A DNA stretch of 20,000 nucleotides from an uncultured virus (IMG/VR IMGVR_UViG_3300043313_000272) (IMGVR_UViG_3300043313_000272); one strand, 5' to 3'; positions 290 through 19,888 are shown, numbered from the stretch's first letter. A program made the numbers and translations. Notes: generated from the letters alone by a model not told the origin.

Positions 290-305
290 CTCCTTGCCAG
301 GTGGG
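290..305 (-). promoter_or_regulatory. start-associated box CCCACCTGGCAAGGAG (box-only copy)
   Basis: Same motif as in the six full cassettes, directly upstream of a start codon. Confidence 0.75.
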
Positions 306-343
306 GCTTACCTGTCAAGGGTAGCGGATCGTATACGTTTCGT

Positions 344-544
344 CTACGTTTTTTGGCCGCGTTTCCAAACGTGGCCACAGTCGGGGCAGCGCCACACGTT
401 CGTCTGCTCCTCGGTCGGCTCGTGCGTGTCCTCGGTGACCTCAATGGCCCGAGTGAACAGCTTCTTGAGGTGCCGGTATTGCCGCTTGACCGTGCGATCG
501 CGCAGCGACACCTTGCAGCTCGGGCACTGCTGGGGGAGCTTCAT
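344..544 (-). CDS. zinc-ribbon protein
   Basis: CPSC...WRCPDCGHVW; ATGA-coupled to the upstream gene. Confidence 0.75.
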   Translation of the reverse strand: MKLPQQCPSCKVSLRDRTVKRQYRHLKKLFTRAIEVTEDTHEPTEEQTNVWRCPDCGHVWKRGQKT

Positions 545-837
545 AGCGCCTGGAACGTGGAGCCGCAGGCGAGGCAGCGGGACTGGCCGTTGACCCTCTC
601 AGATCGCAGCTCCAACGGATGCCGGCACAACCTGGCCGGCGTCATCATCCTCGGCGTCTGCCGGACCTGTATTACGCGGGACCGCGGCATGTCACGCGCC
701 AGCTGATCCTGGCAGGCTTTGATCACCCATTCCGACCGATTCATCGCCATCTCCGCCGCCGCCGCGTCGATTTGGGCCAGCAGCCCAGGCGGCGTACGGA
801 CGTTGAGCTTCCCTTGCTCGTCCTGCTCCTCCGGCAT
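541..837 (-). CDS. RHH (CopG/Arc-like) DNA-binding protein with C-terminal Cys/His motif
   Basis: KLNVRTPPGLLAQIDAAAAEMAMNRSEWVIKAC is a typical RHH pattern; C-terminal CRH...CLACG; RBS GGAAGGTG. Confidence 0.75.
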   Translation of the reverse strand: MPEEQDEQGKLNVRTPPGLLAQIDAAAAEMAMNRSEWVIKACQDQLARDMPRSRVIQVRQTPRMMTPARLCRHPLELRSERVNGQSRCLACGSTFQAL

Positions 838-1032
838 GTATCACCTTCCCCCGATGTGAATCGGAGGCTACCGGAAATGACAGCCGTGTGATCCGGCTGG
901 CGTAGACGTGCCCAATTGTTATGCTTCGGATATGTCCACGCGGCGAGCACACCCAGATCACGCGTCGATAACGGATCGGCGCGCGGCGCTGGAGCGTTCC
1001 CTCCGGCACTTCCTGGAGATCCAGGAGGAGGC

Positions 1033-1212
1033 TCAGGAAATGACCGTGATCCAGGGGCAAGGCCGGGATGAGGCGCGGAGCACAAGCAGCTCGCCGACCG
1101 CCTCCAAGATCGTCTCCCAATAGACCACAGCCTGGACGTCCCGCACGTCTTCGGCGAGATCACGCTCCGTTGCCGCTAGGTCGTCCAGCTCCCTCAGCTC
1201 TATCTCGGTCAT
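1033..1212 (-). CDS. hypothetical protein (59 aa, MTEIELRELDDLAATERDLAEDV...)
   Basis: Manually translated, below the ORF-track cutoff; RBS GGGGAGG upstream of ATG. Confidence 0.55.
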   Translation of the reverse strand: MTEIELRELDDLAATERDLAEDVRDVQAVVYWETILEAVGELLVLRASSRPCPWITVIS

Positions 1213-1450
1213 CGTCGACCTCCCCGACCGGACCCCACTTCTCGGGGTGAATCCGTCTGTCAGATCTAGTCAACCTTGCGACGGCCTCTGCCGGCGTGAT
1301 CTCGCCGCTTCTCAGTAGCGCGCGTGTCCGATCCATGCTCGCTCGGGCGACGTCATCGGCGCGAGTGGCGAACCGCATAGCCTGCTCTGACGCCTCAGCT
1401 GGGGAGAGCAGGTCAGCCACTTTCGGCGCCCACGGTGGCAGCGGCCACAC
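1160..1450 (-). CDS. hypothetical protein
   Basis: RBS GGGGAG before GTG; co-oriented with neighbours. Confidence 0.6.
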   Translation of the reverse strand: MWPLPPWAPKVADLLSPAEASEQAMRFATRADDVARASMDRTRALLRSGEITPAEAVARLTRSDRRIHPEKWGPVGEVDDDRDRAEGAGRPSGNGA

Positions 1451-1458
1451 GGCTCCCC

Positions 1459-1665
1459 CTAACCCTTGTCATGGTGACGCACCTCCACCTTGTTCATGGC
1501 GACGGGCAGCGCCTCGATCTGGAATCCGCCGAAGGTGGCCGCGTCGAGGCTGAGCGCGAACCCGTTGTCCAGGTCCTCCAGCATCCACTGGTTTCCGGAC
1601 CCGTCGCTGATCAGCACATACTTCGGGTCGCCCTGCGGTGTGTCCACCGGGATCGCGATGATCAT
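1459..1665 (-). CDS. hypothetical protein (MIIAIPVDTPQGDPKY...)
   Basis: ATGA overlap with the upstream stop at 1662-1664. Confidence 0.7.
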   Translation of the reverse strand: MIIAIPVDTPQGDPKYVLISDGSGNQWMLEDLDNGFALSLDAATFGGFQIEALPVAMNKVEVRHHDKG

Positions 1666-2039
1666 GAGGGTTCTCCCAGTTCGGCTGCCCACTTGTCGCG
1701 GCGCTCGATCGAGTGGGCCATGATCTCGTTCATCCAGTCGGGGGCGACGCCGTCTTCCCAACGCCACTTCAGCCAGTACAGCTCCTTGTTGACGGTGGAG
1801 AGGCGGCTGCCCTTCAGCACCTGATGGGCGAACACGCTGAGGTCAAGCTCCCAGACACCGCCGCGATGGTCGACCTCCACCTCGCCGTCGACGGTCACGC
1901 GCGTCCAGGTGACCTTCGCCAGGTACGGCTGAAAGGGCGGGCGCGATCGATCCTGGATTATCTCCACGTGGCCGACGTCGTACTCCAGCAGGATGCTGTC
2001 GGTGACCTTCCTGCTCGGGTAGACCTGCGGGCCTTTCAC
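1662..2039 (-). CDS. hypothetical protein (MKGPQVYPSRKV...)
   Basis: GTGA overlap with the stop of the 2036-2212 gene. Confidence 0.7.
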   Translation of the reverse strand: MKGPQVYPSRKVTDSILLEYDVGHVEIIQDRSRPPFQPYLAKVTWTRVTVDGEVEVDHRGGVWELDLSVFAHQVLKGSRLSTVNKELYWLKWRWEDGVAPDWMNEIMAHSIERRDKWAAELGEPS

Positions 2040-2212
2040 TTCCGCCCCCGGTTGGCCTTCCGGGAGGCTCGCGCCTGCTTGGTCTTGGCCCGGTTCGCCT
2101 TCGCCTTCCGATGCCGCGGCGGCGGCTGGAGCGGCTCGACTTCGTAGTTGCCGGCTATCGGCTTGATGAGGCTCATCCCGTCGAGGACGTTTCGCCAATC
2201 GATTGTGGCCAT
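2036..2212 (-). CDS. small basic protein (58 aa, MATIDWRNVLDGMSL...RKANRGRK)
   Basis: Manually translated; preceded by box ACCTGGCAAAG plus AAGGAG RBS. Confidence 0.7.
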   Translation of the reverse strand: MATIDWRNVLDGMSLIKPIAGNYEVEPLQPPPRHRKAKANRAKTKQARASRKANRGRK

Positions 2213-2219
2213 GCTTGTT

Positions 2220-2238
2220 CTCCTTCTTTGCCAGGTGT
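2220..2238 (-). promoter_or_regulatory. start-associated box CACCTGGCAAAG plus RBS (box-only copy)
   Basis: Motif match upstream of the ATG at 2212. Confidence 0.75.
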
Positions 2239-2245
2239 GTTGTGT

Positions 2246-2304
2246 GGGCGGCTGACCGCTTCCCTGAGACGGATCACTCGGGATCGTCTGACAGCCAGCC
2301 GCCC
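2246..2304 (-). other. long intergenic RNA hairpin
   Basis: Minus strand GGGCGGCTGGCTGT pairs with GCGGTCAGCCGCCC (14 bp, 3 G-U); inner AGACGATC/GATCCGTCT stem. Confidence 0.6.
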
Positions 2305-2326
2305 TTTCCTCCCCTGTGCGACGCCG

Positions 2327-2575
2327 TTATGGCGACGACAGAAGCTCCAGATACCCTCGGTCGTGCATCCAGTGGTAGATCTCGTTCCAATCGCCCGAGT
2401 AGATCACCTCGTCGTTGTCGTCCCAGATGTCGAGCTTCCAGACCGCCGGGTCGGCTTGGATGATCGTGAACCGTTTCCTCATGCCGGCCAGCTCCAGCAT
2501 CTCGGTGTCGAAGTAGGCGACCTCCACGCCGGCGGGCAGGTTGTCACGAAGCACTTGCAACGCGTCGCCGGCCAT
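2327..2575 (-). CDS. hypothetical protein
   Basis: RBS GAGGAGGTGG; co-oriented ORF. Confidence 0.7.
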   Translation of the reverse strand: MAGDALQVLRDNLPAGVEVAYFDTEMLELAGMRKRFTIIQADPAVWKLDIWDDNDEVIYSGDWNEIYHWMHDRGYLELLSSP

Positions 2576-2753
2576 TTCCCACCTCCTCGTACACCTTGAC
2601 CGTCATGTTCATATGCCCAAGCAGCTCGGACAATAACAGATCCGGGTTCTCCAGGTCGGGCTCGTCGAGCGCCTCCTGCAGCCGGCTGGCGGTCCGCTTC
2701 CAGGTGTCTATGTTGCAGTTCAGCTCAACCACGGGTTGGCCGTTGGTGCTCAT
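2544..2753 (-). CDS. hypothetical protein
   Basis: ATGA-coupled; RBS GAGGAGG. Confidence 0.7.
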   Translation of the reverse strand: MSTNGQPVVELNCNIDTWKRTASRLQEALDEPDLENPDLLLSELLGHMNMTVKVYEEVGNGRRRVASAS

Positions 2754-2929
2754 GACGCCTCCTCAACCGAGAGGACCTGCACCTCGTAGGCGGGCACGTC
2801 TGCGTCGGCTGCGTGGTGCAGCTTGGCCGCGCGCCGGGCTGCCGGCACATGATCCTTCTCGATCTCGGTGGTGACCTTCGGGCCCTCCAGATCCTTGGTG
2901 GCCCATTGGGTGGTGACCAGGAACTTCAT
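2750..2929 (-). CDS. hypothetical protein (59 aa, MKFLVTTQWATKDLEGPK...)
   Basis: Manually translated; ATGA overlaps at both ends. Confidence 0.7.
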   Translation of the reverse strand: MKFLVTTQWATKDLEGPKVTTEIEKDHVPAARRAAKLHHAADADVPAYEVQVLSVEEAS

Positions 2930-3147
2930 GCAGGCACCCCCATCGGGGTGACCTCGACGACAACCACGTTGTCCGCGAAGTGCGAGCGGACCTCGTTGAA
3001 GCCGAAGCGGGCGGCTGCGTCGGACACCTTGACGTTGATGTCCAGCACCGCGCCGTCGACTAACACGCCGTCGGTGCTGTCGCCCTGCAACAGCGACACC
3101 TCAGTGCCCCAAGCCTTACGGACCATCACTACGGTGAAGTCGGACAT
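2926..3147 (-). CDS. hypothetical protein
   Basis: First gene downstream of the cassette at 3153-3220. Confidence 0.75.
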   Translation of the reverse strand: MSDFTVVMVRKAWGTEVSLLQGDSTDGVLVDGAVLDINVKVSDAAARFGFNEVRSHFADNVVVVEVTPMGVPA

Positions 3148-3152
3148 TTTGA

Positions 3153-3220
3153 TCTCCCTTGCCAGGTGGATTTTCGATCTAGGACAAACCTATGGGACCA
3201 CCCCGGTGTTGTCAAGAGTT
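3153..3220 (-). promoter_or_regulatory. promoter cassette 1: TTGACA (3210-3215), 17 bp, TAGGTT (3187-3192), box TCCACCTGGCAAGGGAGA
   Basis: Consensus SigA/HrdB-type -35 and -10-like hexamers; repeated six times in the window. Confidence 0.85.
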
Positions 3221-3228
3221 TGGGGAGA

Positions 3229-4235: not shown

Positions 4236-4299
4236 GGCAGAAACGTATCGACCCCAGGGTCCCAAGCTAGGGATTTACCCGGGGTCGCTGTCACACCGT

Positions 4300-4413
4300 C
4301 TACTTCTTGGGTTTCCCGGTCTTGGGGTTGACCGACTTCGACGTCCCGAAGATGTTCGTCTTGATCAGCGTCGCCTTGCGTAGCTCAGCCGGCTTCAGGG
4401 GTTTCTTGGCCAT
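4300..4413 (-). CDS. 37-aa Lys-rich peptide (MAKKPLKPAELRKATLIKTNIFG...)
   Basis: Strong RBS GAGGAGGTGA; manually translated. Confidence 0.65.
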   Translation of the reverse strand: MAKKPLKPAELRKATLIKTNIFGTSKSVNPKTGKPKK

Positions 4414-4426
4414 CGTTCACCTCCTC

Positions 4427-4642
4427 TCAGTCCATCACGTCGGGATCGATCCACGGCTCCGGGATCAGGTCCCAACCGGTGATCCAGTCACCGGGGGCGG
4501 CGACGCGGGGCGAGCGGCTTTCGAGGATCACCTTGTCGCCGGTGACTTCGACCACTTCCGCCTCCACTGTGTAGCTGGGTCCGTCTTTGGCTCCGGCAGC
4601 CATATACACCAGCAACCGGTCGCCGGGCTTGGACTCAGGCAC
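4427..4642 (-). CDS. hypothetical protein (MPESKPGDRLLVY...)
   Basis: RBS GGAGG before GTG; overlaps the upstream stop. Confidence 0.65.
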   Translation of the reverse strand: MPESKPGDRLLVYMAAGAKDGPSYTVEAEVVEVTGDKVILESRSPRVAAPGDWITGWDLIPEPWIDPDVMD

Positions 4643-4859
4643 GTCTCTTCCTCCGGCCTTGCCACCAGCCAGGCCCGGGATGGTTCCACCGGTCCTGGTA
4701 GGTGTCGTGCTCGTGGTTGATGGTGCGGGAGCCGTTGCCGAAGAACGGGATCCGCCAATGCCAGGTGTGCGAGTTGATCCGGAACCGCAGGCCCTTGCGG
4801 GACCAGTTGTACCGGAGGACCGGCAGCACCGGAATGTTTCCGCGGTCAAGCCAGGGCAT
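4635..4859 (-). CDS. small basic Trp-rich protein, possibly DUF4236-like
   Basis: LRYNWSRKG...PGPG pattern; RBS GAGG. Confidence 0.55.
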   Translation of the reverse strand: MPWLDRGNIPVLPVLRYNWSRKGLRFRINSHTWHWRIPFFGNGSRTINHEHDTYQDRWNHPGPGWWQGRRKRRA

Positions 4860-5277
4860 CGGCGATCGCCTCACCGTCGACCGGCGGCGGCAGCGGAGGC
4901 GCCGCGCCAGCTCCGACACAGGTCACGCAATAGCCGGACGTTTCCATCCGCACATCAGCGTTGCCGCAGCCCTTGCACGGCGAGGAGATCCAATGCCCCT
5001 CCTTCGCGCCGGGCTCCTTGACGTGGCGGTCAGGCTTGTCGATGTTCGGCCACGGCTCCTTGTGCCGGATGCCATACGCCGACGTGCGCTGGATATCCAG
5101 GATCTGGTCGACGGTGAGCGGGGCAGCCACCCGACCGGGCTCAGGATGTGAGCGCACCAGGAACAGCCGGATGCCCATCACCGTCACGCCGGCGGCGAGC
5201 ACGGCCAGCACCCACAGCAGGTGCACCTCGTGCTCCGGCGGCTTCTGGGCGATCGAGAAGACAATCAGTGCGCTCAC
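4846..5277 (-). CDS. membrane protein with CxxC...CxxC motif
   Basis: RBS GAGGGGAG before GTG; TM segment LLWVLAVLAAGVTVMGI; CKGC...CVTC. Confidence 0.65.
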   Translation of the reverse strand: MSALIVFSIAQKPPEHEVHLLWVLAVLAAGVTVMGIRLFLVRSHPEPGRVAAPLTVDQILDIQRTSAYGIRHKEPWPNIDKPDRHVKEPGAKEGHWISSPCKGCGNADVRMETSGYCVTCVGAGAAPPLPPPVDGEAIADALA

Positions 5278-5291
5278 GGCGCTCCCCTCGG

Positions 5292-5783
5292 TTAGATGAT
5301 GATCGTCATCAGCAGGCAGTTGACGATCGCCCACAAGCCGCAGAAGGCCAACGCGCCGAGCAGTCTGTACCCGTCGGCCCGGGACGGCTCCTGAGGTGCC
5401 CGGAACCAGCTCATGATCTCCCCAGTGCCACGCCACCAGGTGACCGCCGTGTCCTTGATGACCCGACCGATCAGGTGGAAGAACTTGCCGGTCAGCCAGG
5501 CGCCGAACCGCATCGGCCAGTAGATGCACGGCACCCACTCGACGTGGTAGCCGTTGTGCGAGTCGGACACCCGCACCCGCTGGTAGCTGGTCATGAAGGT
5601 CGTCTCGTAGTAGTCGACCTCCTGCGCCTCCATACGCCGGCGATCGGGTGGAACCAGCTCATTCCCGTAGTTCTGCGGCAGCTCGGGCGGGTACCCGTAA
5701 AGCGTGTCGGCGGTCACCATGCGGTCGTCGTAGATGGACAGCTCGCCATAGTCGAAGTCGTCGCTGCAGACCTTGTTGTTCAC
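5292..5783 (-). CDS. hypothetical protein with C-terminal TM helix
   Basis: GTGA-coupled ORF. Confidence 0.7.
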   Translation of the reverse strand: MNNKVCSDDFDYGELSIYDDRMVTADTLYGYPPELPQNYGNELVPPDRRRMEAQEVDYYETTFMTSYQRVRVSDSHNGYHVEWVPCIYWPMRFGAWLTGKFFHLIGRVIKDTAVTWWRGTGEIMSWFRAPQEPSRADGYRLLGALAFCGLWAIVNCLLMTIII

Positions 5784-6732: not shown

Positions 6733-7052
6733 GAAGCCTCCTCGTCCTCCTCAGCCTCCACGCGAACGCTGGGGAAGTAGATGATGGAGCCTAGCCCCAT
6801 GGAGTCGATCGCGTTGTTGCCGGCCATCTCGTCCAGCAGCTCGTCGTCGGCGATCTCGGGATTGTCGCCGAGCAGCTGACCGAGCCGAATCCCGAACTCG
6901 AACGCTGTGGTGCCGCGGTCGACGTCGAAGCCGAGGCAGGTCGTGCCGTACATTCCGCGGCCCGAGTAGTTGTGCCTCACGGTGATGTCGAGGTCAGCTT
7001 CCTGCAGGGCCGTCTCCAGCTCGTCTGCCTGCTCGGGGGTGATGATCATCAT
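6729..7052 (-). CDS. acidic phage hypothetical protein (YSGRGMYG..CLG motif)
   Basis: First gene after cassette 2; motif recalled from phage hypothetical proteins. Confidence 0.75.
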   Translation of the reverse strand: MMIITPEQADELETALQEADLDITVRHNYSGRGMYGTTCLGFDVDRGTTAFEFGIRLGQLLGDNPEIADDELLDEMAGNNAIDSMGLGSIIYFPSVRVEAEEDEEAS

Positions 7053-7056: not shown

Positions 7057-7124
7057 ATCTCCTTTGCCAGGTGGATTTGATCTTGGTCTAAACCTAAGCG
7101 ACCGAACCCCGGTTGTCAAGAGTT
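7057..7124 (-). promoter_or_regulatory. promoter cassette 2: TTGACA (7114-7119), 17 bp, TAGGTT (7091-7096), box TCCACCTGGCAAAGGAGA
   Basis: Repeat of the cassette consensus. Confidence 0.85.
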
Positions 7125-7149: not shown

Positions 7150-7995
7150 CTAGCTGGGATCAGCTGGCTCCACCCGATCGCCGGTGGACACAGTGCCTCC
7201 GGAGGTCGCGTTGCCGTTGTACAGGCCACGCCCGATGAAGGGCTCGCCCGGTGCCGGTGCACCCGGATCGGAGACCTTGAAGGTGAAGACGAACGCCCCA
7301 CCTGCACCAGTGGAGATCTCGCCCACGTCGCCGTAGGCAGAGCCGACCACGTCGGTGCGGGTCTGGATGTGAGCGTTCCGACCCTCATAGCCGACGTACT
7401 TGCCGGTGCTCCAGTTGGCGCGCACGAGCTTGCCGCTGGCCTTCACCGTGTCGACGTACGGCTCAGGTGAGAAGTTCACCCGGTCCGCGCTGGAGCCGCT
7501 CTTGAACTCGGTACGCCGCAGCAGCACCAGGTCGCCGACGTCGTCCGTGTCGACCTCCCAGCCGGTGCCTGTGGCCGACTCTGCGTCGTTGATGCGGACC
7601 CGGACGTTCTTCTCATCGCCGGCCACCGAGTTGCTACCCGGCTTCTCGACGTAGATCACGTCACTGTCCTCACCAGCAGCCGCCTCGCCGGCGGTGAAGG
7701 TGCCCTCGGCGGAGACGTAGCCGCCGGCGCTGAACACCTGCCAGCGATCGCCAGCCTCCACGTTGCAGACTGCCGGGGCCTTGATGGTCAGGGTGCGCTT
7801 GGCATCCGACACCCCGATGACCGCCTCGTGGTCGGCAGTGTTGATGTAGCGGGCCGGGCTGGACAGCTTCCAGGAAACCGCGGCTTCACAGGCCGCGGCG
7901 TCGATCGGCGCCGCTTGGGCGGGCAGCGCGGACAGCGCGAACCCTGCGGTCAGAGCTAGCCCGGAGGCCACCCCCAATGCTCTCTTGATGGTCAT
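7150..7995 (-). CDS. secreted beta-rich protein, similar to Streptomyces DUF5707/calcium-binding surface proteins
   Basis: Signal peptide ending AQA; NFSPEP...GKLVRANWSTGKYVGY motif; RBS AAAGGA. Confidence 0.65.
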   Translation of the reverse strand: MTIKRALGVASGLALTAGFALSALPAQAAPIDAAACEAAVSWKLSSPARYINTADHEAVIGVSDAKRTLTIKAPAVCNVEAGDRWQVFSAGGYVSAEGTFTAGEAAAGEDSDVIYVEKPGSNSVAGDEKNVRVRINDAESATGTGWEVDTDDVGDLVLLRRTEFKSGSSADRVNFSPEPYVDTVKASGKLVRANWSTGKYVGYEGRNAHIQTRTDVVGSAYGDVGEISTGAGGAFVFTFKVSDPGAPAPGEPFIGRGLYNGNATSGGTVSTGDRVEPADPS

Positions 7996-8054
7996 GCAGT
8001 GAATCCTTTCGTTGATGTTGCCTTGCTGACGTTACAGAACGGGTGGGTCGTTGA

Positions 8055-8090
8055 CCTCCTTTGCCAGGTGATGTTGCGCGGGTAAACCTA
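8055..8090 (-). promoter_or_regulatory. partial cassette: TAGGTTT plus box CACCTGGCAAAGGAGG, without TTGACA or an adjacent start codon
   Basis: AACCTA at 8085-8090 on plus; box at 8055-8070. Confidence 0.65.
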
Positions 8091-8360
8091 GCAGCGCGGT
8101 TCCCGCTTGGCTTCAGGCTCCGCGGCTCGCGGCGTGTCGAACATGCCCTCCAGCAGGCCGCGGGTGTGCTTCGGCATGCAGTCGTGTACGAAGCGGGCGC
8201 CCTTCACCTCGCCGGGCATGGTGACCTTCACCTTGTCGTCGGTGTCGTCGAGGTGCCAGCCGCCGGTGTCCAGCTCAACCGCCAGATCGGCTGTGACGTC
8301 TCGCTTGCAGGCCGGGCATTTGGCGATCGGCTCAGCTCGGGTCACTCGTACCAATGTCAC
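8088..8360 (-). CDS. hypothetical protein with CPAC...HDC motif
   Basis: GTGA-coupled; RBS GAGGAGGTGA. Confidence 0.7.
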   Translation of the reverse strand: MTLVRVTRAEPIAKCPACKRDVTADLAVELDTGGWHLDDTDDKVKVTMPGEVKGARFVHDCMPKHTRGLLEGMFDTPRAAEPEAKREPRC

Positions 8361-8545
8361 GTCTTCACCTCCTCTCCCAAGTCCATGCTCATCACAACCC
8401 CGGTGTTGCTGACGGTGAAGCGGAGCCGCCGACACTCACCGAGCAGTTGCAGCGGCGACACCTCGACGGTCAGCTCGCCGGCAGGGACCTTCTGCATCAG
8501 GTAGCGCAGCTGCTCCGCATCCCGTTCGCTGAGCACATACTTCAC
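8357..8545 (-). CDS. hypothetical protein
   Basis: RBS GGAGG/GGGA before GTG. Confidence 0.7.
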   Translation of the reverse strand: MKYVLSERDAEQLRYLMQKVPAGELTVEVSPLQLLGECRRLRFTVSNTGVVMSMDLGEEVKT

Positions 8546-8556
8546 TCCCGCACCTC

Positions 8557-9621
8557 CTATGTTTCGCAGACGACGCCGTCGCCGTCTCGGTCGCGGTACC
8601 AGTCGTACTCGGGGTCCCGGCCCTTCTTGTACGGGCCGTAGCCGTTCGCGTTGGCCTCATAGCAGTAGTCGAAGCGCGGGTCCGTCCGGCGGTGCGCCCG
8701 GGGCGGCACATAGCCAGGGCAGCCCTTCGTCTTCCAGTTGCTCTCGACACAGCGGGGCCGCTTCTGCACCTTCGGTTCACCGATCGGCTTCGGCTTCGGC
8801 CAATTGAACGCGGTCGCCTTGTCGGGTGACCAGGACTGGCCGTCACAGTCGTCGGTGTCGAGGATCGTCAGGAGCATGGTGCGCTCCTTGCTCGTCACCG
8901 GGATGTCGTACCGGTGTTTGATGTGAGCCACACGGGCCGCGAAGAAGCAGGCGTCCTGCTTGTCGTCCGGGCGCCAGCGGTCGATCGTCTTGTCGGACTT
9001 CCCCTGGTTCGTCGCAGAGTCAACCGCCTCCAGGTTCTCCGGGTCGTTGGCGAACTTCTCACGGTTGGCCTGGGTCTCGTCGTCCATCACCTGCCAGGCG
9101 TTGTGGAGCGACACGACGTGGTCGATCTCCACCTTCCCGTCGCCACGCTCATAGGTGAACGTGTGCGGGCTGGCGTAGCTGTACTCGTCGTCCCGGATCT
9201 TCGCCTTCGCCATCACGCAGCCGTGAGTGCCGGGCTTGGTGTGCCTTTTCACCGAGTCGCGGCGCAGCACATCATTGCGGGTGTCGCAGCCGTTGTGATC
9301 GACGTCCTTCCAGGCTTGGCCGTACGCCGACCTCTTGTAGCCCGTGATGCGGGAGTCGTCGACGTCGAGCGCCAGCGCGATCCCGAACGCTGATTTGGGG
9401 TCAACCGTTTGGCTCGGCGTGGCCGATGCCTGCGCCTTCGACGGGGTAGAGCTAGGCGCCGGCGCTGAGGTCGAGCGCGCCTTGTCGGCGGCATCCGATC
9501 CGCGCCAGAAGTCGCCGGTTGCCATGGACAGGTTGGTGCTGAGCATCGAGAAGCCCAACACCACCCCGATGATGATCACTACTTTGTGGCGGCTCAACGG
9601 CCCCCGAGGTTTCTTGCTCAC
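8557..9621 (-). CDS. exported DUF1524/HNH-type nuclease with C-terminal Excalibur Ca-binding domain
   Basis: N-terminal TM and Ser/Pro linker; DVDHNGCDTRNDVLRRD, IDHVVSLHNAW, FANDPENLEAVD..NQGKSDK...WRP; C-terminal FDYCYEANANGYGPY...YRDRDGDGVVCE; GTG start after box. Confidence 0.85.
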   Translation of the reverse strand: MSKKPRGPLSRHKVVIIIGVVLGFSMLSTNLSMATGDFWRGSDAADKARSTSAPAPSSTPSKAQASATPSQTVDPKSAFGIALALDVDDSRITGYKRSAYGQAWKDVDHNGCDTRNDVLRRDSVKRHTKPGTHGCVMAKAKIRDDEYSYASPHTFTYERGDGKVEIDHVVSLHNAWQVMDDETQANREKFANDPENLEAVDSATNQGKSDKTIDRWRPDDKQDACFFAARVAHIKHRYDIPVTSKERTMLLTILDTDDCDGQSWSPDKATAFNWPKPKPIGEPKVQKRPRCVESNWKTKGCPGYVPPRAHRRTDPRFDYCYEANANGYGPYKKGRDPEYDWYRDRDGDGVVCET

Positions 9622-9624
9622 TAG

Positions 9625-9642
9625 ATCTCCTTTGCCAGGTGT
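9625..9642 (-). promoter_or_regulatory. start-associated box ACACCTGGCAAAGGAGA (box-only copy)
   Basis: Motif match directly upstream of the GTG at 9621. Confidence 0.75.
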
Positions 9643-9674
9643 TTGTTTCATGAATCATGAACCTTGAAACTAAG

Positions 9675-9926
9675 TTACCGAGATTCCACCCCCGGGTCGT
9701 CGAATTCGGAGCGGATGCCGTATCCGCTCCGATACCGAGGCCACAGTGACATCGGGACAGGTCGGCGGTGCTCGTCCAGGATCAGCCAGCTGTACCGCCT
9801 CTTCACGACCACACCGTTGGCCTGCGGCTCGTCGACGTCCACGGTCCGGCGCTCCAGCTCCTCCTCGATTGTGTCCAGGCTGGCGTCGTCCGGAACGTCG
9901 AACTCGAACGTGACCTGGATCCTCAC
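9675..9926 (-). CDS. hypothetical protein (MRIQVTFEFDVPDD...)
   Basis: GTGA-coupled to the 9923-10018 gene. Confidence 0.7.
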   Translation of the reverse strand: MRIQVTFEFDVPDDASLDTIEEELERRTVDVDEPQANGVVVKRRYSWLILDEHRRPVPMSLWPRYRSGYGIRSEFDDPGVESR

Positions 9927-10018
9927 GAGTTCTTCCTGACCTCGCGGGCTACGAAGATGAGCATCGGCAGCACCACGAACAGCAAACCGCCAACGACTAC
10001 GAACCATTGCCAAGCCAT
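9923..10018 (-). CDS. 31-aa single-TM peptide (MAWQWFVVVGGLLFVVLPMLIFVAREVRKNS)
   Basis: Manually translated; first ATG after cassette 3. Confidence 0.7.
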   Translation of the reverse strand: MAWQWFVVVGGLLFVVLPMLIFVAREVRKNS

Positions 10019-10022
10019 TGTT

Positions 10023-10091
10023 TCCCCTTGCCAGGTGGAGTTTCTGTTTACGAGATCAAACCTACAGCACCTACCCCGCTTGTCAAGAGTT
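10023..10091 (-). promoter_or_regulatory. promoter cassette 3: TTGACA (10081-10086), 16 bp, TAGGTT (10059-10064), box TCCACCTGGCAAGGGGA
   Basis: Repeat of the cassette consensus. Confidence 0.85.
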
Positions 10092-10386
10092 CAGCTGTCG
10101 ATGATGGCCAGCAGCTCCTTCAGCCACTGGCAGTCCTGGCAAATGTCGTCCGGGTGGAGGTGGCAGTGCTTGTGATAGGCCGGGTGCGCCGAGCCGTGCT
10201 TCGCGGCGTGCTCGATCAGTCGACGTCGTAGCCGGTCGAGCGCAGCAGCCTCAAAGCCTGGTCCCGGTTGCGTTGACAGCACCGGCGATGAGTCCAGATC
10301 CACCGCGGACAGTCGTGCACCATGCAGTACTTCAGGATGTCGTGTTGGGTCAGCCAGATCGCGACCGTGCTCAGCAACCACCTCAC
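10091..10386 (-). CDS. Cys/His-rich hypothetical protein(s), frame ambiguous (10216-10386 and/or 10091-10381)
   Basis: Two overlapping open frames; one is GTGA-coupled upstream, the other ends at the next promoter. Confidence 0.45.
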
Positions 10387-11021: not shown

Positions 11022-11821
11022 CAGTGGCTGTCTACCCAGGTCTGGGCGGCATCCGGGGTGTTGGCGTACAGGTAGTCCACCCCGCGATCCTCGGCGGTCT
11101 GGTAGTTCGCTGAGCCGTCGAAGTCGTAGGTGGCCACATCCTTCCCAGCAGCCGTGTACGCCGCTGCGGTGGTGGCGTCGAGCGTGGCGCCGGACTGGAC
11201 GAACACGTCGATGTAGGCCGCTTCGCTGGCCGGGTTCATGTCGCAGTTGCAGGCCAGCCCGATCAGCGGGAAGCCCTCGCCGTCAGCTTCGGCCAACGTG
11301 GCGCGGTCGAAGCCGTTCCACAGGACCTGACTCTTCGACACCCCAGCATCGGAGAGCGCGGTGTTGACCGCTGCCCATTGGGTGGAGGTCGGGTTCACCT
11401 TCGACTCCAGCGACACCCGGGCGTTCGGGCCGGCTGCCTTCACCGAGAGCATGAACTGGAACAGCGTCTGCCCCTGCTGCTTGTTATCGGCCAGACAGCT
11501 GAGCGCGGTCGGGGTGCTCACCGAGGAGATGGCCTGGGTGCAATTGAACAGGGCCAGGGTCGAGTCGTGGAGGATGTACGGCACCCCGGTGGAGGTGAAC
11601 CGGATGTCGCCGTCCAGGAACGTGTGGCCGTGCGCCACCGACCTGATGCACTGGAGCGCGGTGTTCTCGACATAGCTGGAGCCGTCGACGTTGCACCGGT
11701 GTGAGATGACCGTCATCGGCTGATCGGTCGCCTGTGCGGATTGGATGTTGCCGCCCACCATGATGGCGGCTGCTGCGGCTGCTCCGACTGCTGCGAACGC
11801 GCGGCGAAGAATTCTGTGCAT
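11021..11821 (-). CDS. secreted glycerophosphodiester phosphodiesterase (GDPD)-family protein
   Basis: ISHR...ENT...LDGDIRFTSTGVPYILHDSTL...LESK matches HRG/ENT/ExDV..TxDG..HD/EIK; signal peptide with RR and AQA. Confidence 0.8.
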   Translation of the reverse strand: MHRILRRAFAAVGAAAAAAIMVGGNIQSAQATDQPMTVISHRCNVDGSSYVENTALQCIRSVAHGHTFLDGDIRFTSTGVPYILHDSTLALFNCTQAISSVSTPTALSCLADNKQQGQTLFQFMLSVKAAGPNARVSLESKVNPTSTQWAAVNTALSDAGVSKSQVLWNGFDRATLAEADGEGFPLIGLACNCDMNPASEAAYIDVFVQSGATLDATTAAAYTAAGKDVATYDFDGSANYQTAEDRGVDYLYANTPDAAQTWVDSH

Positions 11822-11856
11822 TCCCCCGAGACCCTTCCGTTATGAGTTGTGGCCTG

Positions 11857-11886
11857 AGCCTCCACCGTCCCGGGGGGACTGTCAAG
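11857..11886 (-). promoter_or_regulatory. possible weaker promoter TTGACA-17-GAGGCT for the GDPD gene
   Basis: TGTCAA at 11880-11885 in a short intergenic gap; -10 is imperfect. Confidence 0.35.
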
Positions 11887-15079: not shown

Positions 15080-15531
15080 GTGGGCCTCCGGTTCCTGCGC
15101 GTGCTCATGGTGGGGGCGACGTACTTCTCAGCGAAGTCGGCCACCCAGCCGTGCAGCGAGCCCTCGGTGCGCAGCTCGACACGGACCTCACCTCCGCCTG
15201 CTCGTATCACCTTGGCCTGCAGGATGACGATCACCTCATCGCCAGGCTGGAAGGCGAACACCTCACGGCGCTCGTGGACGTTCTCCAGATACTTCGGCTG
15301 GAGGTCCTGCGGCGGGGGAAGCTCATTTTTGTACGGCTCACCGGTGGCGTCCCGGAGCACGACCGTGATGCCCGAGTTGTCCTCGGGCGGGTCGCCGTCG
15401 GCGTTAGCACCGTAGTGACCGCACGCCGGGCAGTACATCCGGAACGTCTGCTCAGTCGGATCCCACGCCCTCTTCCACTCATGATCGCCGCTTTCCGACC
15501 GCGGGCAGACCGGCTCCTCTTCTGCGCTCAT
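15076..15531 (-). CDS. hypothetical protein with N-terminal Zn-ribbon-like motif
   Basis: CP...H...YCPACGH; ATGA-coupled. Confidence 0.7.
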   Translation of the reverse strand: MSAEEEPVCPRSESGDHEWKRAWDPTEQTFRMYCPACGHYGANADGDPPEDNSGITVVLRDATGEPYKNELPPPQDLQPKYLENVHERREVFAFQPGDEVIVILQAKVIRAGGGEVRVELRTEGSLHGWVADFAEKYVAPTMSTRRNRRPT

Positions 15532-15692
15532 GCCATCGACTCCTTGATTGCTGCCAGCCTCTTGTCGCGGCGGGCTCGGACACGCTTCGTCCGGCGGTCC
15601 TGGTGGATGCCGGCGGCGTTGCTCCGGCGCAGCTCCTGCAGCCGCTGACCCTCCTTGCGGATCGGGCGGGCATGCTCAGTGTGTGCCATCAT
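15528..15692 (-). CDS. 54-aa Arg-rich protein (MMAHTEHARPIRKEGQRLQELRRSNAAGIHQDRRTKR...)
   Basis: Manually translated; first gene after cassette 4; ELRRSNAAG motif recalled from actinophage small proteins. Confidence 0.7.
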   Translation of the reverse strand: MMAHTEHARPIRKEGQRLQELRRSNAAGIHQDRRTKRVRARRDKRLAAIKESMA

Positions 15693-15695: not shown

Positions 15696-15762
15696 TCCCC
15701 TTTGCCAGGTGGGTTGCTTTCAAGATCAAACCTAGTGGGCCACCCGCACCGTGTCAAGAGTT
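15696..15762 (-). promoter_or_regulatory. promoter cassette 4: TTGACA (15752-15757), 17 bp, TAGGTT (15729-15734), box CCCACCTGGCAAAGGGGA
   Basis: Repeat of the cassette consensus. Confidence 0.85.
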
Positions 15763-16053: not shown

Positions 16054-16054
16054 A

Positions 16055-16910: not shown

Positions 16911-17083
16911 TCCGTCACCCCGAACATGGCTCGCAGGTTGTCGTCGTCCAGCTCAGCCTGCAGCGGCACCAAGCCGGGGCGGGGATCTAGGTCGAACAGC
17001 AGCACCATCAGGTACCTGCTCAGTGTGGTCTCGATGGTGAGCGTGATCGGCTCAGTCCACGACCCAACCATTGCCTCACTCAT
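16907..17083 (-). CDS. hypothetical protein (MSEAMVGSWTEPITL...)
   Basis: RBS AAGGAG before ATG. Confidence 0.65.
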   Translation of the reverse strand: MSEAMVGSWTEPITLTIETTLSRYLMVLLFDLDPRPGLVPLQAELDDDNLRAMFGVTE

Positions 17084-17324
17084 CGTCTCTCCTTCTGCTG
17101 TCGCCGAACCCGTCCTGGGTCGAGTTGCTGTCATTCCTGGTGATGTGGACGCCGAGGAGGGCAGGCATCACAGCCAACCCGACCATCGCGGCACCGACGA
17201 TCTGCATCCGCCACTGACCTGACAGCCAGCTGGTCGGCATCTCAGGTCCGACCAGGAACATCAGGCCGTGGCCGGCGAGGATCGCGGCGAGCAGTATCCA
17301 CCCGACGTCGATGTGGATCTTCAC
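17076..17324 (-). CDS. two-TM membrane protein
   Basis: GTGA-coupled; RBS GGAGG. Confidence 0.7.
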   Translation of the reverse strand: MKIHIDVGWILLAAILAGHGLMFLVGPEMPTSWLSGQWRMQIVGAAMVGLAVMPALLGVHITRNDSNSTQDGFGDSRRRDDE

Positions 17325-17419
17325 GGCTGCCAACCTCCTCGGACGGCGAACGCACCGACGACGATCGGGGCCAACGCCAGGACCCAGATGACGATCCACA
17401 AGACCGCTCGGCCAGTCAC
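17321..17419 (-). CDS. 32-aa single-TM peptide (MTGRAVLWIVIWVLALAPIVVGAFAVRGGWQP)
   Basis: Manually translated; GTGA overlaps at both ends. Confidence 0.7.
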   Translation of the reverse strand: MTGRAVLWIVIWVLALAPIVVGAFAVRGGWQP

Positions 17420-17574
17420 CGTCGACCAGCCTCTACCAGCGGCTTGAGCAGGAAGGGCATCAGCAGCATGAGCGCACCTACCCAGATGTCACCCATCGCA
17501 TAGTTCCCTGCTCCGACCACGCCGGCGGCGATGATCATCACCAGCAGCGCACGGTCGAGCGCCTTGGAGATCAC
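17416..17574 (-). CDS. 52-aa two-TM peptide
   Basis: GTGA-coupled; RBS AAGGAGG. Confidence 0.7.
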   Translation of the reverse strand: MISKALDRALLVMIIAAGVVGAGNYAMGDIWVGALMLLMPFLLKPLVEAGRR

Positions 17575-17744
17575 CGGTCCTCCTTGTGTTTGGGGCAGAT
17601 GTCGCCCTTCTCCAGTGACCAGCGCCAGTCGTACTGCATCCGGGCGATCGCTCGGGCTCGGTGGATGTCCTGGTGCTCGTCGAAGTGGAGCAGCGAGTTG
17701 CATTCCGAATGATCGCAGACCAGCTCCCACACCAGGGCGATCAC
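17571..17744 (-). CDS. small Cys/His protein (CDHSEC...DICPKH)
   Basis: GTGA-coupled; zinc-finger-like pattern. Confidence 0.7.
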   Translation of the reverse strand: MIALVWELVCDHSECNSLLHFDEHQDIHRARAIARMQYDWRWSLEKGDICPKHKEDR

Positions 17745-18046
17745 TTCGGCAGCACCCGGTGCGGGCGTCCGTCGCCGACCTTGTTTCCGTGGGCGTCCTG
17801 GTCGTACTCCATCACGTTGTAGTCGGGGTCCTTCTTGCCGAGCAGGCCCTTCCAAATCCATTCCCTGGTCTGCACCGCATCCAACACTCGGGGCGCAGCG
17901 TTGGCGGTGATCCGGCGGGTTTGGGTGCCGAGCTTCCGCTTCACCTTGCCGCGGAACTTCTTCCAGCGGGCTCGACCTGCGATGCACACCAGCGCAGTCA
18001 CCAGCAGGGTGACCACGTTCGACAGGATCAGCACCGCCCAGTTCAT
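17741..18046 (-). CDS. TM-anchored basic protein
   Basis: ATGA-coupled; N-terminal TM segment. Confidence 0.7.
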   Translation of the reverse strand: MNWAVLILSNVVTLLVTALVCIAGRARWKKFRGKVKRKLGTQTRRITANAAPRVLDAVQTREWIWKGLLGKKDPDYNVMEYDQDAHGNKVGDGRPHRVLPK

Positions 18047-18174
18047 TGGATCCATGACACCCATCCCCAAACCAGCAGGCACAGGATGATCAGCTTGATC
18101 GCATCGCCGGCGTACCGGGCGCGGCGCACGTACCGCTGCATCTCCAAATGCCAGCGGACCTCGTCCTCGTTCAT
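18043..18174 (-). CDS. 43-aa peptide with C-terminal TM helix
   Basis: ATGA-coupled; RBS GGAGG. Confidence 0.65.
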   Translation of the reverse strand: MNEDEVRWHLEMQRYVRRARYAGDAIKLIILCLLVWGWVSWIQ

Positions 18175-18272
18175 TTCGCCTCCAGATAGCCGATCAGTTG
18201 GTACAGCACGAACGACAGCTCCAGCAGGTTCACCAGCACCAGAGTCAAAATGATCTTGGTCAGGATCTTCAT
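18171..18272 (-). CDS. 33-aa single-TM peptide (MKILTKIILTLVLVNLLELSFVLYQLIGYLEAK)
   Basis: Manually translated; ATGA overlaps at both ends. Confidence 0.7.
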   Translation of the reverse strand: MKILTKIILTLVLVNLLELSFVLYQLIGYLEAK

Positions 18273-18511
18273 GCCACCTGCTCCCATTCGCTGTCGTCGA
18301 CCTGCACGTACTCGCCGGTCTCGTCCTGCTTCCACACCGACAGCACCTGGGTACGCCGGCCCTGCTTGGTCTGGTAGTCAACCACCTGCCGGACGGCCTG
18401 CTGCGGAGTCGGACCTTTGCCGAAGCTAAACCACTTCCGGTTCTGCCGCGGGTTGTCCGCCAACGTCTTGCACCACACCTTGAACTCACAGCCTGAGATC
18501 CGGTAGCTCAT
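18269..18511 (-). CDS. hypothetical protein (MSYRISGCEFKVWCK...)
   Basis: ATGA-coupled; RBS AGAGGTG. Confidence 0.7.
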   Translation of the reverse strand: MSYRISGCEFKVWCKTLADNPRQNRKWFSFGKGPTPQQAVRQVVDYQTKQGRRTQVLSVWKQDETGEYVQVDDSEWEQVA

Positions 18512-18663
18512 CGCTGCACCTCTTTCGGGCTGAGCGCCTTCGCAACCACCGACACCACGGCGCCGGCGACACAGATCCAAGTCAATGTGCTGTGCGGGTC
18601 CACGATCAGCAGCACCGCTGCCAAGGCCACCGCCACGATTTGAATAAGCCAACGAGCCATCAT
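18508..18663 (-). CDS. 51-aa two-TM peptide (MMARWLIQIVAVALAAVLLIVDP...)
   Basis: Manually translated; first gene after cassette 5. Confidence 0.7.
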   Translation of the reverse strand: MMARWLIQIVAVALAAVLLIVDPHSTLTWICVAGAVVSVVAKALSPKEVQR

Positions 18664-18667
18664 CGAG

Positions 18668-18729
18668 TCTCCTTGCCAGGATTTGATCTTGAATCAATCC
18701 TATCGGAGCACCACCCGTTGTCAAGAGTT
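18668..18729 (-). promoter_or_regulatory. promoter cassette 5: TTGACA (18719-18724), 16 bp, TAGGAT (18697-18702), shortened box TCCTGGCAAGGAGA
   Basis: Repeat of the cassette consensus. Confidence 0.85.
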
Positions 18730-18730
18730 T

Positions 18731-18922
18731 TCAGCCGGAACGTCCCCCAGCAAGGTTGTGAACATAGCTGGCCGTCACCTTAAACTCGGCAGCCAGCTGC
18801 GCAGCTGGCTCGCCGTCCTGGTAGCGGCGGATGATGTCCTCCCTCTGCCTTGCGGTGAGCTTCTTGCTTCTCTTGGTGTACGCCTTCCCCCAGTTATCGC
18901 TAGGGAAGCCGGGGGCTGTCAT
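18731..18922 (-). CDS. helix-turn-helix DNA-binding protein
   Basis: KLTARQREDIIRRYQDGEPAAQLAAEFKVTASYVHNL is a resolvase/homeodomain-like HTH; ATGA-coupled. Confidence 0.8.
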   Translation of the reverse strand: MTAPGFPSDNWGKAYTKRSKKLTARQREDIIRRYQDGEPAAQLAAEFKVTASYVHNLAGGRSG

Positions 18923-19338
18923 CGGTTCGCCGGCAGCGAGCAGCGCCACACCCAGAAGTCGACCTGGGTATCGACACCACCGCCAGCCGTCCAGTAGTCG
19001 TGATGGAAGAACCACACACCACCCAGCCGCAGCTCGCCAGCATCGGAGAACGTCTCACCCGGCACACCAGCATGGAGCGAGCCGGAGAACGACACCGCGC
19101 CGTCCTCACCCATATGCCACGAGCCACCGTCAGACGTCTGGATCGAATAGATCGCCGGACCCTCAGCGTCAGCCGGCCAATCCCACACGTGGCTCACTCG
19201 GCGCTCAACACCATCAGCGAACACGACCCAGTCACCGACACCAGGCTTGATCCTCCTGAGCACACCAGCAGCTCGACGGGCCTTGATCTGCTCATCCCGC
19301 TCATCTAGCTCGATTGTGCTGTGCATTGTGGTTTCCAT
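18919..19338 (-). CDS. hypothetical protein (PGVGDWV...SFSGSL...VWFFHHD motifs)
   Basis: RBS AAGGGGA before the ATG at 19338. Confidence 0.75.
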   Translation of the reverse strand: METTMHSTIELDERDEQIKARRAAGVLRRIKPGVGDWVVFADGVERRVSHVWDWPADAEGPAIYSIQTSDGGSWHMGEDGAVSFSGSLHAGVPGETFSDAGELRLGGVWFFHHDYWTAGGGVDTQVDFWVWRCSLPANR

Positions 19339-19379
19339 CGTCTTCCCCTTCTGGGTTCGGTTTTGTTGCTTCGGGTTAC

Positions 19380-19597
19380 CAGTGGACCGGGCATGATTCG
19401 CACATGCCTTCGACTCGGGGTGGCCGGTTCCTCTTGGCGGTCCAGGTGGGTGGCTCTCACGTATTCGTTGGGGACGAGAGCCACCCTGTAAGGAGTGAGG
19501 GTCAGTGTTTGCCTTCACCTCCTTTCGGGGTGAGTTGGGTCCGGGCTTGGAGCCTGTAGGGACTCGGTTTGAGTTGGCCGGCTCCGTTACCGGTGGC
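19380..19597 (-). ncRNA. candidate structured RNA or leader, including a tRNA-like minihelix
   Basis: Consecutive stems including an 11-bp perfect inverted repeat, GNRA loops (GTAA, GAAA) and a T-loop-like TGCGAAT. Confidence 0.45.
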
Positions 19598-19816
19598 TTA
19601 TTTGGCCTGGATGTTCGTCAGGCTGGCGAGGCGGGCGACGCCGCCGTAGCCGTTGAGCATGATCGAGATGCAGTCACCGTCTTGGAGGGCCGGGTCCTGG
19701 TACAGCTCGACGGTCGTTCCGGGGCGAGCGTTGCTGCTGTCCCAGTGGTAGAACTGCCGGGGTCCGACCTTCACGGTCTCCGTCAGGACTGCTGTGTGGG
19801 TCCAACGAGCTGTCAT
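19598..19816 (-). CDS. hypothetical protein
   Basis: First gene after cassette 6. Confidence 0.75.
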   Translation of the reverse strand: MTARWTHTAVLTETVKVGPRQFYHWDSSNARPGTTVELYQDPALQDGDCISIMLNGYGGVARLASLTNIQAK

Positions 19817-19822
19817 TTCATT

Positions 19823-19888
19823 TCCCCTTGCCAGGTGGATTTTGCTTATGAGACAAACCTAGCGCACCGCACCCGGTTGTCAAGAGTT
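19823..19888 (-). promoter_or_regulatory. promoter cassette 6: TTGACA (19878-19883), 16 bp, TAGGTT (19856-19861), box TCCACCTGGCAAGGGGA
   Basis: Repeat of the cassette consensus. Confidence 0.85.

Follow-up and report, generated by a model that had tools for sequence, protein, structure and literature searches.

A stretch of 20,000 nucleotides from an uncultured virus (IMG/VR IMGVR_UViG_3300043313_000272), the whole of which is referred to here as the window, raises the question of why one short sequence should be found again and again, in one orientation, directly in front of gene starts. The original prediction for this DNA described ten copies of such a box joined to a Shine-Dalgarno (SD) sequence and offered several functions for it. 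The analysis reported here shows that the box is a real, non-random, conserved start-associated element, and that the design in which it is joined to the SD is kept across three diverged phage lineages, each genome with its own uniform variant. Concerning its function, we consider it slightly more probable than an even call that the box is an RNA-level start-associated element acting at translation initiation.

The pattern TTGCCAGG occurs ten times on the plus strand, at 294, 2228, 3159, 7064, 8061, 9632, 10028, 15702, 18673 and 19828, which are exactly the positions that had been listed. Counted on both strands of the window there are 11 matches, compared with 0.69 expected (standard deviation 0.85, largest 5), and none of 200 shuffles had 11 or more. 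Because every credible gene of the window is on the minus strand, as judged from G+C content at third codon positions (GC3), the ten copies are in sense orientation. Read in that direction the box is CACCTGGCAA(A)GG, with the variant ATCCTGGCAAGG at 18673. All ten copies lie between predicted genes, and in nine of them an ATG or GTG follows ...GGCAA at a distance of 6-15 nt. The remaining match, a single minus-strand copy of TTGCCAGG at 10135-10142 that was absent from the original list, lies in an open reading frame (ORF) rich in Cys and His and is probably due to chance. The copies are as follows.

19826..19837, minus strand: box CACCTGGCAAGG; ATG at 19816 (or 19821)
18671..18682, minus strand: box variant ATCCTGGCAAGG; ATG at 18663
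15699..15711, minus strand: box CACCTGGCAAAGG; ATG at 15692
10135..10143, minus strand: antisense copy within the Cys/His-rich ORF; the sense strand reads TTTGCCAGG
10026..10037, minus strand: box CACCTGGCAAGG; ATG at about 10013-10011
9629..9641, minus strand: box CACCTGGCAAAGG without full promoter; GTG at 9618; RNA contig 7984-10027 spans the box
8058..8070, minus strand: box CACCTGGCAAAGG followed by AGG; only a -10-like TAGGTTT; RNA contigs span the box
7061..7073, minus strand: box CACCTGGCAAAGG; ATG at 7052
3157..3168, minus strand: box CACCTGGCAAGG; ATG at 3147
2225..2237, minus strand: box CACCTGGCAAAGA, then AGGAG; no promoter; ATG at 2212; RNA contigs span the box
292..303, minus strand: box CACCTGGCAAGG; GTG at 285

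Within the box, (A)AAGG(A/G)G comes right after an invariant CACCTGGC, and the spacing between the box and its purine-rich SD is 0 in all copies except the one at 2228, where it is 3 nt. Apart from this gap, the earlier description of the copies as asymmetric, intergenic, co-oriented, joined to an SD and followed by a start codon in nine of ten cases was accurate. The boxes of the window mark first genes; the remaining 30 or so predicted genes are preceded by plain SDs (for example GAGGAGG), and most of them overlap adjacent genes.

Six of the copies (3159, 7064, 10028, 15702, 18673 and 19828) are found 16-23 nt 3' of the promoter pattern AACTCTTGACA(A/C)-16/17 nt-TAGG(T/A)T, which occurs in the window six times in sense and never in antisense orientation, compared with 0.003 occurrences expected from first-order Markov simulations. 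All six of these SigA-type promoters have a box, and the boxes at 294, 2228, 8061 and 9632 are without a full promoter. Actinobacterial SigA -10 boxes follow TANNNT, and a scan of the E. coli type recovered only one of the six promoters because TAGGTT scores 3/6 against TATAAT. The promoter calls listed here rest on the pattern given above and its control.

19856..19883, minus strand: promoter TTGACA-16-TAGGTT with extended -35 AAACTCTTGACAAC; predicted start about 19849; contig stops 19831/19812/19807
18697..18724, minus strand: promoter TTGACA-16-TAGGAT; predicted start about 18690; contig stops 18672/18653
15729..15757, minus strand: promoter TTGACA-17-TAGGTT; predicted start about 15722; contig stops 15704/15695
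10059..10086, minus strand: promoter TTGACA-16-TAGGTT; predicted start about 10052; contig stop 10027
7091..7119, minus strand: promoter TTGACA-17-TAGGTT; predicted start about 7084; contig stops 7068/7053/7043/7042
3187..3215, minus strand: promoter TTGACA-17-TAGGTT; predicted start about 3180; contig stops 3168/3163/3158

The box begins 8-15 nt 3' of the predicted transcription starts, and for these predicted leaders the earlier claim that the box is transcribed holds. The contig stops come from soil metatranscriptomes, which make up 12 of the 24 public runs containing the stretch; contigs of four of these were compared with the window. They end at all six promoter cassettes and span all four promoter-less copies, in agreement with the earlier view of the box as an element independent of the promoter. 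The 15 contig ends at the cassettes fall 0-31 nt 3' of the first box base, none of these contigs reaches the predicted start, and the ends at 3158, 10027 and 18672, from three runs and three cassettes, are on the identical base of the box. RNA ends cannot be proved from such contigs, and the libraries may also contain DNA. The pattern is thus a weak sign that the cassettes delimit transcription units and that the box is near the 5' end of the RNAs. Contigs of all four runs also end at 11826-11858, just 5' of a gene encoding a protein that resembles glycerophosphodiester phosphodiesterase (GDPD-like; ATG at 11821), in a zone without a promoter or box cassette.

The spacing from box to SD is constant (0, or 3 nt at 2228) while that from the -10 to the box varies over 16-23 nt, and the box is therefore tied to the SD and start codon and not to the promoter. 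Nine leaders, all except that of the 294 copy, are no more structured than shuffled sequences (z -0.47 to +1.28), as expected of open initiation regions. A terminator-like stem-loop (15815-15800) precedes only one of the six cassettes.

The surroundings of the window show what kind of phage this is. A megablast search of the window against phage and plasmid records returned nothing near-identical, but contigs from IMG/VR and the Joint Genome Institute (JGI) extended it on both sides. One (L078), which shares 1,768 nt with it at 100% identity, reaches 4.9 kb upstream, and another (L079) is 94-97% identical and reaches 9.4 kb downstream. The upstream flank encodes a DAM-like methylase/GNAT protein and the ATPase half of a terminase large subunit (50% identity to gp4 of Arthrobacter phage KellEzio), and the downstream flank encodes a RusA-like protein (44% identity to KellEzio gp5), the terminase nuclease half (62% identity to KellEzio gp10), a portal and a capsid protein. 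Among named phages, the portal matches six Arthrobacter phage records only. KellEzio, of cluster AT, and DanielleIgnace have a split terminase too, with halves 1-2 kb apart, and the accessible part of PMC5513430 notes the split for the cluster; here the gap is about 22 kb (the window together with L078 4010-4765 and L079 7083-8006). The source is thus an uncultured soil-phage relative of KellEzio and DanielleIgnace, and the window is an accessory island, made up of accessory and orphan genes, that separates the two parts of the split large terminase, with the ATPase half on one side and RusA plus the nuclease half on the other.

When the 43 ORFs of the window were compared by tblastn with KellEzio and the first 50 kb of DanielleIgnace, there were no matches. 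Products of the island include GDPD-like, metallophosphoesterase and GmrSD_C/Excalibur nuclease-like proteins whose hydrophobic N-termini resemble signal peptides by eye, as well as a bPH_2 membrane protein and HicB-like proteins. The nuclease-like protein with its putative signal peptide is the one that starts at the GTG at 9618, behind the 9632 box. The first genes behind two other boxes (15528-15692 and 2036-2212, minus strand) encode small, very basic proteins of 54 and 58 aa, the former arginine-rich; neither has a Pfam match, and both are candidate nucleic-acid binders. Two small ORFs had been labelled ribbon-helix-helix proteins, and this was not supported: 82-285 has no Pfam match at E<=0.05 and 541-837 has only sub-threshold HicB matches.

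No box stands before a gene start in the 4.9-kb and 9.4-kb flanks, which hold the methylase-like gene, both terminase halves, portal and capsid; the downstream flank has one CCTGGCAA, a two-mismatch match inside a gene. Across the window and flanks the box is limited to non-structural genes. Two further contigs (L126 and L129), which overlap each other by 3,582 nt at 100% identity and merge into 15,144 bp, do not overlap the window but come from the same sample series and have the same G+C content, promoter and box, and are likely from the same phage. They cover a replication and recombination region (DUF5131, a PD-(D/E)XK nuclease, an IstB-like ATPase) in which 4 of 23 ORFs match KellEzio or DanielleIgnace genes with order kept, and they carry four perfect promoter-plus-box cassettes and one variant, GACCTGGCGAGG. 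In total, about 49 kb of an estimated genome of about 72 kb was seen.

Searches beyond this phage gave little. The box pattern matched 51 stretches in IMG/VR, almost all single chance matches, and two copies were found only in the phage's own contig. The promoter pattern, among high-G+C matches in IMG/VR, was limited to the phage's own contigs, and the combined promoter and box pattern gave 20 single matches among genome contigs, nearly all in low-G+C records and taken as chance. Relatives of a cysteine-protease-like protein (L053, L054) had no box or informative repeats, and relatives of the terminase (L139, L146, L147) had coding or tandem repeats only. A separate observation is that an IMG/VR record with a terminase nuclease half 56% identical (L144) has five small genes at 4247-5604 behind a conserved sequence of about 35 nt ending in CGACTGCGGGAGGTG, a different start-associated repeat with five forward and no reverse copies in the 52-kb record.

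CCTGGCAA is absent from KellEzio and DanielleIgnace, which instead have a related box, (C)(C)GGCGAAAGG, likewise joined to the SD. In KellEzio GGCGAAAG occurs 16 times forward and once in reverse, compared with about two per strand expected, and for 14 of the 16 forward copies an annotated start follows within 20 nt. The first 50 kb of the 61,275 of DanielleIgnace contain nine forward and two reverse copies, and seven of the nine forward copies are within 20 nt of a start. Many of these boxes are preceded by a promoter of the family seen in the window, such as AACTATTGACAAC...TAGACT in DanielleIgnace; others are promoter-less, or lie within operons where they overlap the end of the preceding gene. 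In KellEzio a 5' hairpin stands between promoter and box, with a stem sequence that varies from copy to copy while the pairing is always kept. In the parts of the two cluster AT papers that were searched (PMC5513430 and PMC11783174) there is no mention of a promoter, conserved sequence or motif, and none of the passages on "repeat" in the accessible text of PMC5513430 describes such a box.

One orthologous gene carries the local variant of the box in its leader in all three phages (merged contig 7939-9138, KellEzio gp64 and DanielleIgnace gp66; 51-53% identity). Since this ortholog bears a lineage-specific box in each phage, the boxes have changed in concert. The portal of the present phage is 38% and 33% identical to those of the two relatives, compared with 51% between the relatives. 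This makes it the outgroup; therefore the design is old, and the boxes of one genome change together.

Opposite-orientation copies are rare across the three lineages, and their placement is not random. There are one or two per genome, in stretches that we read as noncoding, although one is inside an annotated gene. In the phage studied here the copy, or anti-box, is at 129-141 of the replication-region contig, where a 13-nt complement of CCACCTGGCAAAG lies in a low-GC3 stretch ahead of the gene at 200-679, with a strong hairpin directly after it. The contig starts with ACCTGGCAACGGA, which the minimum-energy fold pairs with the anti-box. The single reverse copy of KellEzio, at 30485, is in an annotated 497-bp gap ahead of gene 40; it pairs with an upstream box-like sequence (box1), CACCTTGGCGAAGGG, in a helix longer than the box, and is followed by a strong hairpin and then by the box of gene 40. 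The layout around the DanielleIgnace anti-box at 29310 is the same. The predicted duplexes of anti-box and box1 have energies of -20.5, -32.8 and -29.2 kcal/mol in this phage, KellEzio and DanielleIgnace (29310), respectively, and shuffled anti-boxes did as well in 2, 0 and 0 of 300 cases. In both relatives the complementarity reaches past the box. The KellEzio element is 100% identical over about 170 nt in phages Kitkat and BeatusComedenti, although identity over the 500 bp around it is only 97-98% and the gene downstream is not the same.

No Rfam family matched the window or the four further contigs at gathering score, or the KellEzio element at E<=1. When box1 was blocked in folds, the downstream hairpin stayed closed in all three lineages. 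Duplexes of the anti-box with boxed initiation regions of the window had a mean energy of -26.0 kcal/mol compared with -16.0 for unboxed ones, but this split is not independent evidence because it follows from complementarity. The leader with box1 and anti-box in KellEzio (L083+L084) contains at 30383-30391 the sequence CGGCCTCTC, with which the 3' arm of the following hairpin also ends and which could be an antiterminator strand; DanielleIgnace has no such arrangement in the same form. In DanielleIgnace (L085) the annotated TTG start of gene 34, at 29346, is within a strong hairpin, and an in-frame ATG at 29406 behind GGCGAAAGAG looks like the real start.

The copy at 294 is the one whose leader is folded, through an imperfect complement of the box beside it:

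309..320, minus strand: imperfect complement of the neighbouring box, CCTTGACAGGTA; identical in the related strain on the downstream contig (L079)

Together with the box it forms a predicted hairpin of -15.8 kcal/mol (z -1.85; equalled by 14 of 200 shuffles), in which the box and some of the SD are enclosed, and the inverted repeat could equally be read as a palindromic DNA site. A palindromic core, CGTATACG, occurs 5' of the 294 copy (about 325-345, minus strand) and again at about 11715 of the merged contig, just 5' of one cassette in the replication region; the -35 of that cassette is within an inverted repeat, CTCTTGACA...TGTCAAGAG. Just 5' of the promoter-less 9632 box, at 9647-9661 (minus strand), there is a perfect 7-1-7 palindrome, TTCATGAtTCATGAA, which could be an operator ahead of the GmrSD_C/Excalibur nuclease-like gene.

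Of the functions proposed originally, an RNA-level translational operator or enhancer fits these data best, because the box is anchored to the SD, because the fusion is kept in three lineages including operon-internal genes, and because the hairpins use the box as a strand. According to this model the box would be the lineage's own start-associated sequence, a single-stranded extension of 10-13 nt 5' of the SD in short, largely unstructured leaders, and would mark the gene that heads each early or accessory transcription unit as well as a few internal genes. The 3' half, (A)AAGG, would be an ordinary SD pairing with the pyrimidine tail of 16S rRNA. The 5' half, CACCTGGC, would not pair with that tail and may serve as a common tag for a trans-acting partner. 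By inspection, CACCTGGC has only short partial complements in 16S rRNA, which are not shared by the KellEzio box, and a sigma-54-like reading of TGGCA was rejected in the same way.

Because all copies in a genome change in concert, a single trans-acting reader is suggested, and it would have changed along with the box, which is CCTGGCAA(A)GG here and GGCGAAAGG in the Arthrobacter phages. Judged from sequence, its only co-varying candidate is the anti-box RNA segment, of which one copy per lineage would pair with the box-like sequence just before a strong hairpin and the next gene's own box. Rather than supplying a free small RNA that acts in trans, the anti-box element may control the gene behind it in cis, as a switch or attenuator. 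In phage T4 one known protein, RegA, acts on many early mRNA initiation regions by binding poorly conserved, AU-rich sites; among the proteins tested here, Pfam scans gave no match to a translational-repressor family.

A more specific proposal, which is tentative and which we think improbable as a whole, is that the box is an RNA-read address tag of a phage regulon, and that the anti-box transcript or leader pairs with, or is titrated by, mRNAs with box and SD. A dozen or more phage mRNAs would be addressed, and the small RNA or leader would consist of box1, anti-box and hairpin. If this is true, translation of the early and accessory operons would be coupled to that of the gene behind the element, which has a replication-initiator-like annotation in KellEzio.

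A number of observations weigh against an RNA-level role and against its anti-box partner in particular. The copy at 8061 has box and SD followed by 55 nt without a start codon. The contig with the anti-box is tied to the phage of the window only by sample series, G+C content, promoter and box, and its 5' end is missing, so that box1 is visible only from its second base; a search of IMG/VR with the anti-box 25-mer gave no matches and did not recover the missing part, and the start of the contig was absent from all other loci collected. The DanielleIgnace anti-box at 29310 lies within annotated gene 33 (29116-29349), though we suspect this gene call, and gene 33, which spans the structured element, may not be a gene. 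The second DanielleIgnace anti-box, at 36061 in an annotated gap, does not pair with a box1 and is placed by the fold in a hairpin loop. Pairing of the anti-box with the downstream box is weak, at -21.1, -20.6 and -18.9 kcal/mol in this phage, KellEzio and DanielleIgnace (z -1.1, -2.1 and -2.0; 39, 13 and 16 of 300 shuffles as good), and the strong pairing of the anti-box in cis speaks against free action in trans. Inverted copies and lineage-specific change would also be expected of an asymmetric DNA site, gene conversion could be another source of uniformity within a genome, and the portion of the genome that was not seen could code for a reader that binds DNA or RNA.

The first of these alternatives is a stoperator-like DNA site, an option of the original prediction that the data weaken and that we now regard as unlikely. 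A phage protein bound to an asymmetric site of 12-13 bp would prevent initiation or elongation, both at about +10 to +25 of each early promoter and at promoter-less intergenic sites, and would so shut off early and accessory genes as a group. Asymmetric, intergenic sites oriented with transcription are described for Cluster A in the available text of PMC9283540, and some copies here are likewise just past promoters while others are in short promoter-less gaps. Inverted copies exist, and the 294 copy is an inverted repeat ahead of a small gene. An ORF at 18731-19015 resembles a helix-turn-helix protein through sub-threshold Pfam matches, a change of box between lineages would fit a changed protein specificity, and about a third of the genome is unseen. 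However, a DNA roadblock does not need fusion to the SD with essentially no gap in three lineages, nor boxes inside operons that overlap the end of the upstream gene, as in KellEzio, and the complementary copies of KellEzio and DanielleIgnace sit in hairpins whose pairing extends past the box. The 64 proteins scanned against Pfam, from about 49 of about 72 kb, included no Cluster A-type repressor, and according to the portion of PMC11783174 available, a cluster AT immunity repressor or integrase is not identifiable.

Stoperators and the box are alike in being asymmetric, placed at promoters or in short intergenic gaps and oriented with transcription. In the sections of PMC9283540 and PMC5559632 at hand, stoperators are 13-bp sites with many copies per genome, bound as DNA by the monomeric immunity repressor of temperate phages and not fused to an SD, and the box differs from the consensus quoted in PMC5559632, of the type GGTGGxTGTCAAG.

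It is also possible, if rather improbable, that the box has no dedicated reader and is an efficient, unstructured initiation region carried with the promoter cassette and spread or homogenised by recombination, like the promoter early stem-loops (PeSLs) of T4-type phages, with the complementary copies being ordinary SD-sequestering hairpins of single genes. The window is a hyperplastic island, and none of its 43 ORFs has a tblastn match in the two relatives; each module starts with the same cassette, the 3' half of the box is a plain SD, the leaders are unstructured and the anti-box is mostly paired in cis. There is also precedent in the excerpts of PMC2839356 and PMC4122927 available, where PeSLs are repeated early promoters that head variable, mostly orphan genes, much as the cassettes do here. 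However, PeSLs as described there combine a promoter with a terminator stem-loop and have no SD-fused box, whereas here a stem-loop precedes one of six cassettes. The stretches between the conserved -35, -10 and box are variable, which does not fit recent copying or conversion tracts. Four copies are without the promoter cassette, CACCTGGC has no partner in the 16S tail, and the design is kept at 33-38% portal identity with a uniform variant in each genome.

RNA processing, in which a cut in or beside the box would give mRNAs starting at the SD, and antitermination, in which a nut-like site would load a factor onto RNA polymerase, are both very unlikely. They are suggested by the position of the 15 contig ends, none at a predicted start and three on the same box base, by KellEzio leaders that consist of a 5' hairpin and then a linear box, and by the arginine-rich protein encoded at 15528-15692. 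However, contigs cannot show RNA ends and a 5' loss of 12-25 nt is ordinary in assemblies, the box is unlike known boxA and has no Rfam match, and antitermination does not require fusion to an SD. Methylation control at Dcm (CCWGG) sites, also raised originally because all copies in this phage contain CCTGG, can hardly be credited, since the GGCGAAAGG boxes of KellEzio and DanielleIgnace are without CCWGG and the one methylase-like gene seen in the vicinity has its match in a family resembling adenine methylases.

The original prediction did not recognise the motif from described systems. This was correct for the sequence, which is absent from the literature searched, but an element of this kind has been described, namely the start-associated sequence (SAS) of Cluster K mycobacteriophages, with its extended form (ESAS), in the parts consulted of PMC3203893, PMC11373665 and PMC12699233. 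As portrayed there, the SAS is a short asymmetric repeat present in 11-19 copies per genome in one orientation, and the box is likewise short and asymmetric with ten of ten copies in sense. The SAS lies 3-9 nt before the starts of non-structural genes, the box 6-15 nt before the start in nine of ten copies. Both consist of an SD core with conserved flanking sequence unable to pair with 16S rRNA, found only 5' of the SD here, unlike the SAS. The ESAS subset follows a conserved SigA-like promoter, and here a SigA-type promoter is found at six of ten copies; ESAS have 17-bp inverted repeats, whereas no shared repeat was seen here, only isolated palindromes (9647-9661 and at one cassette of the merged contig). 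The sequences are unrelated, as CACCTGGCAA(A)GG does not match the SAS consensus GGGATAGGAGCCC with up to two mismatches, and the phage lineage and host genus are unrelated to Cluster K. The box is thus the same kind of element as the SAS, outside that sequence family.

The same text reports, for each of four K1 phages, one SAS copy that is oppositely oriented and unconnected with any gene start. What sets the present phages apart is that in three lineages the opposite copy is predicted to pair with a box-like sequence beside a hairpin. In Mycobacterium phage Anaya (L138) we observed a single opposite SAS copy with one mismatch at about 59870-59882, within the 385 bp of noncoding DNA that separate genes 96 and 97. 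If the box is an RNA-read address tag, the SAS of Cluster K may work likewise, given the position of this Anaya copy.

The Cluster K SAS has been known since 2011, and the portions seen of the 2024 and 2025 papers still call its function unknown and its role undefined. The data presented here add an independent finding of the same design in an unrelated lineage, and this argues that it is a general solution among actinobacteriophages and not a quirk of one cluster. What is new is that each genome has its own sequence variant together with a complementary partner, which makes RNA pairing at the box testable, and KellEzio, Kitkat and BeatusComedenti provide cultivable models on Arthrobacter sp. 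ATCC 21022. The box and its promoter also provide a handle by which the early and accessory regulon of such phages can be defined from sequence alone.

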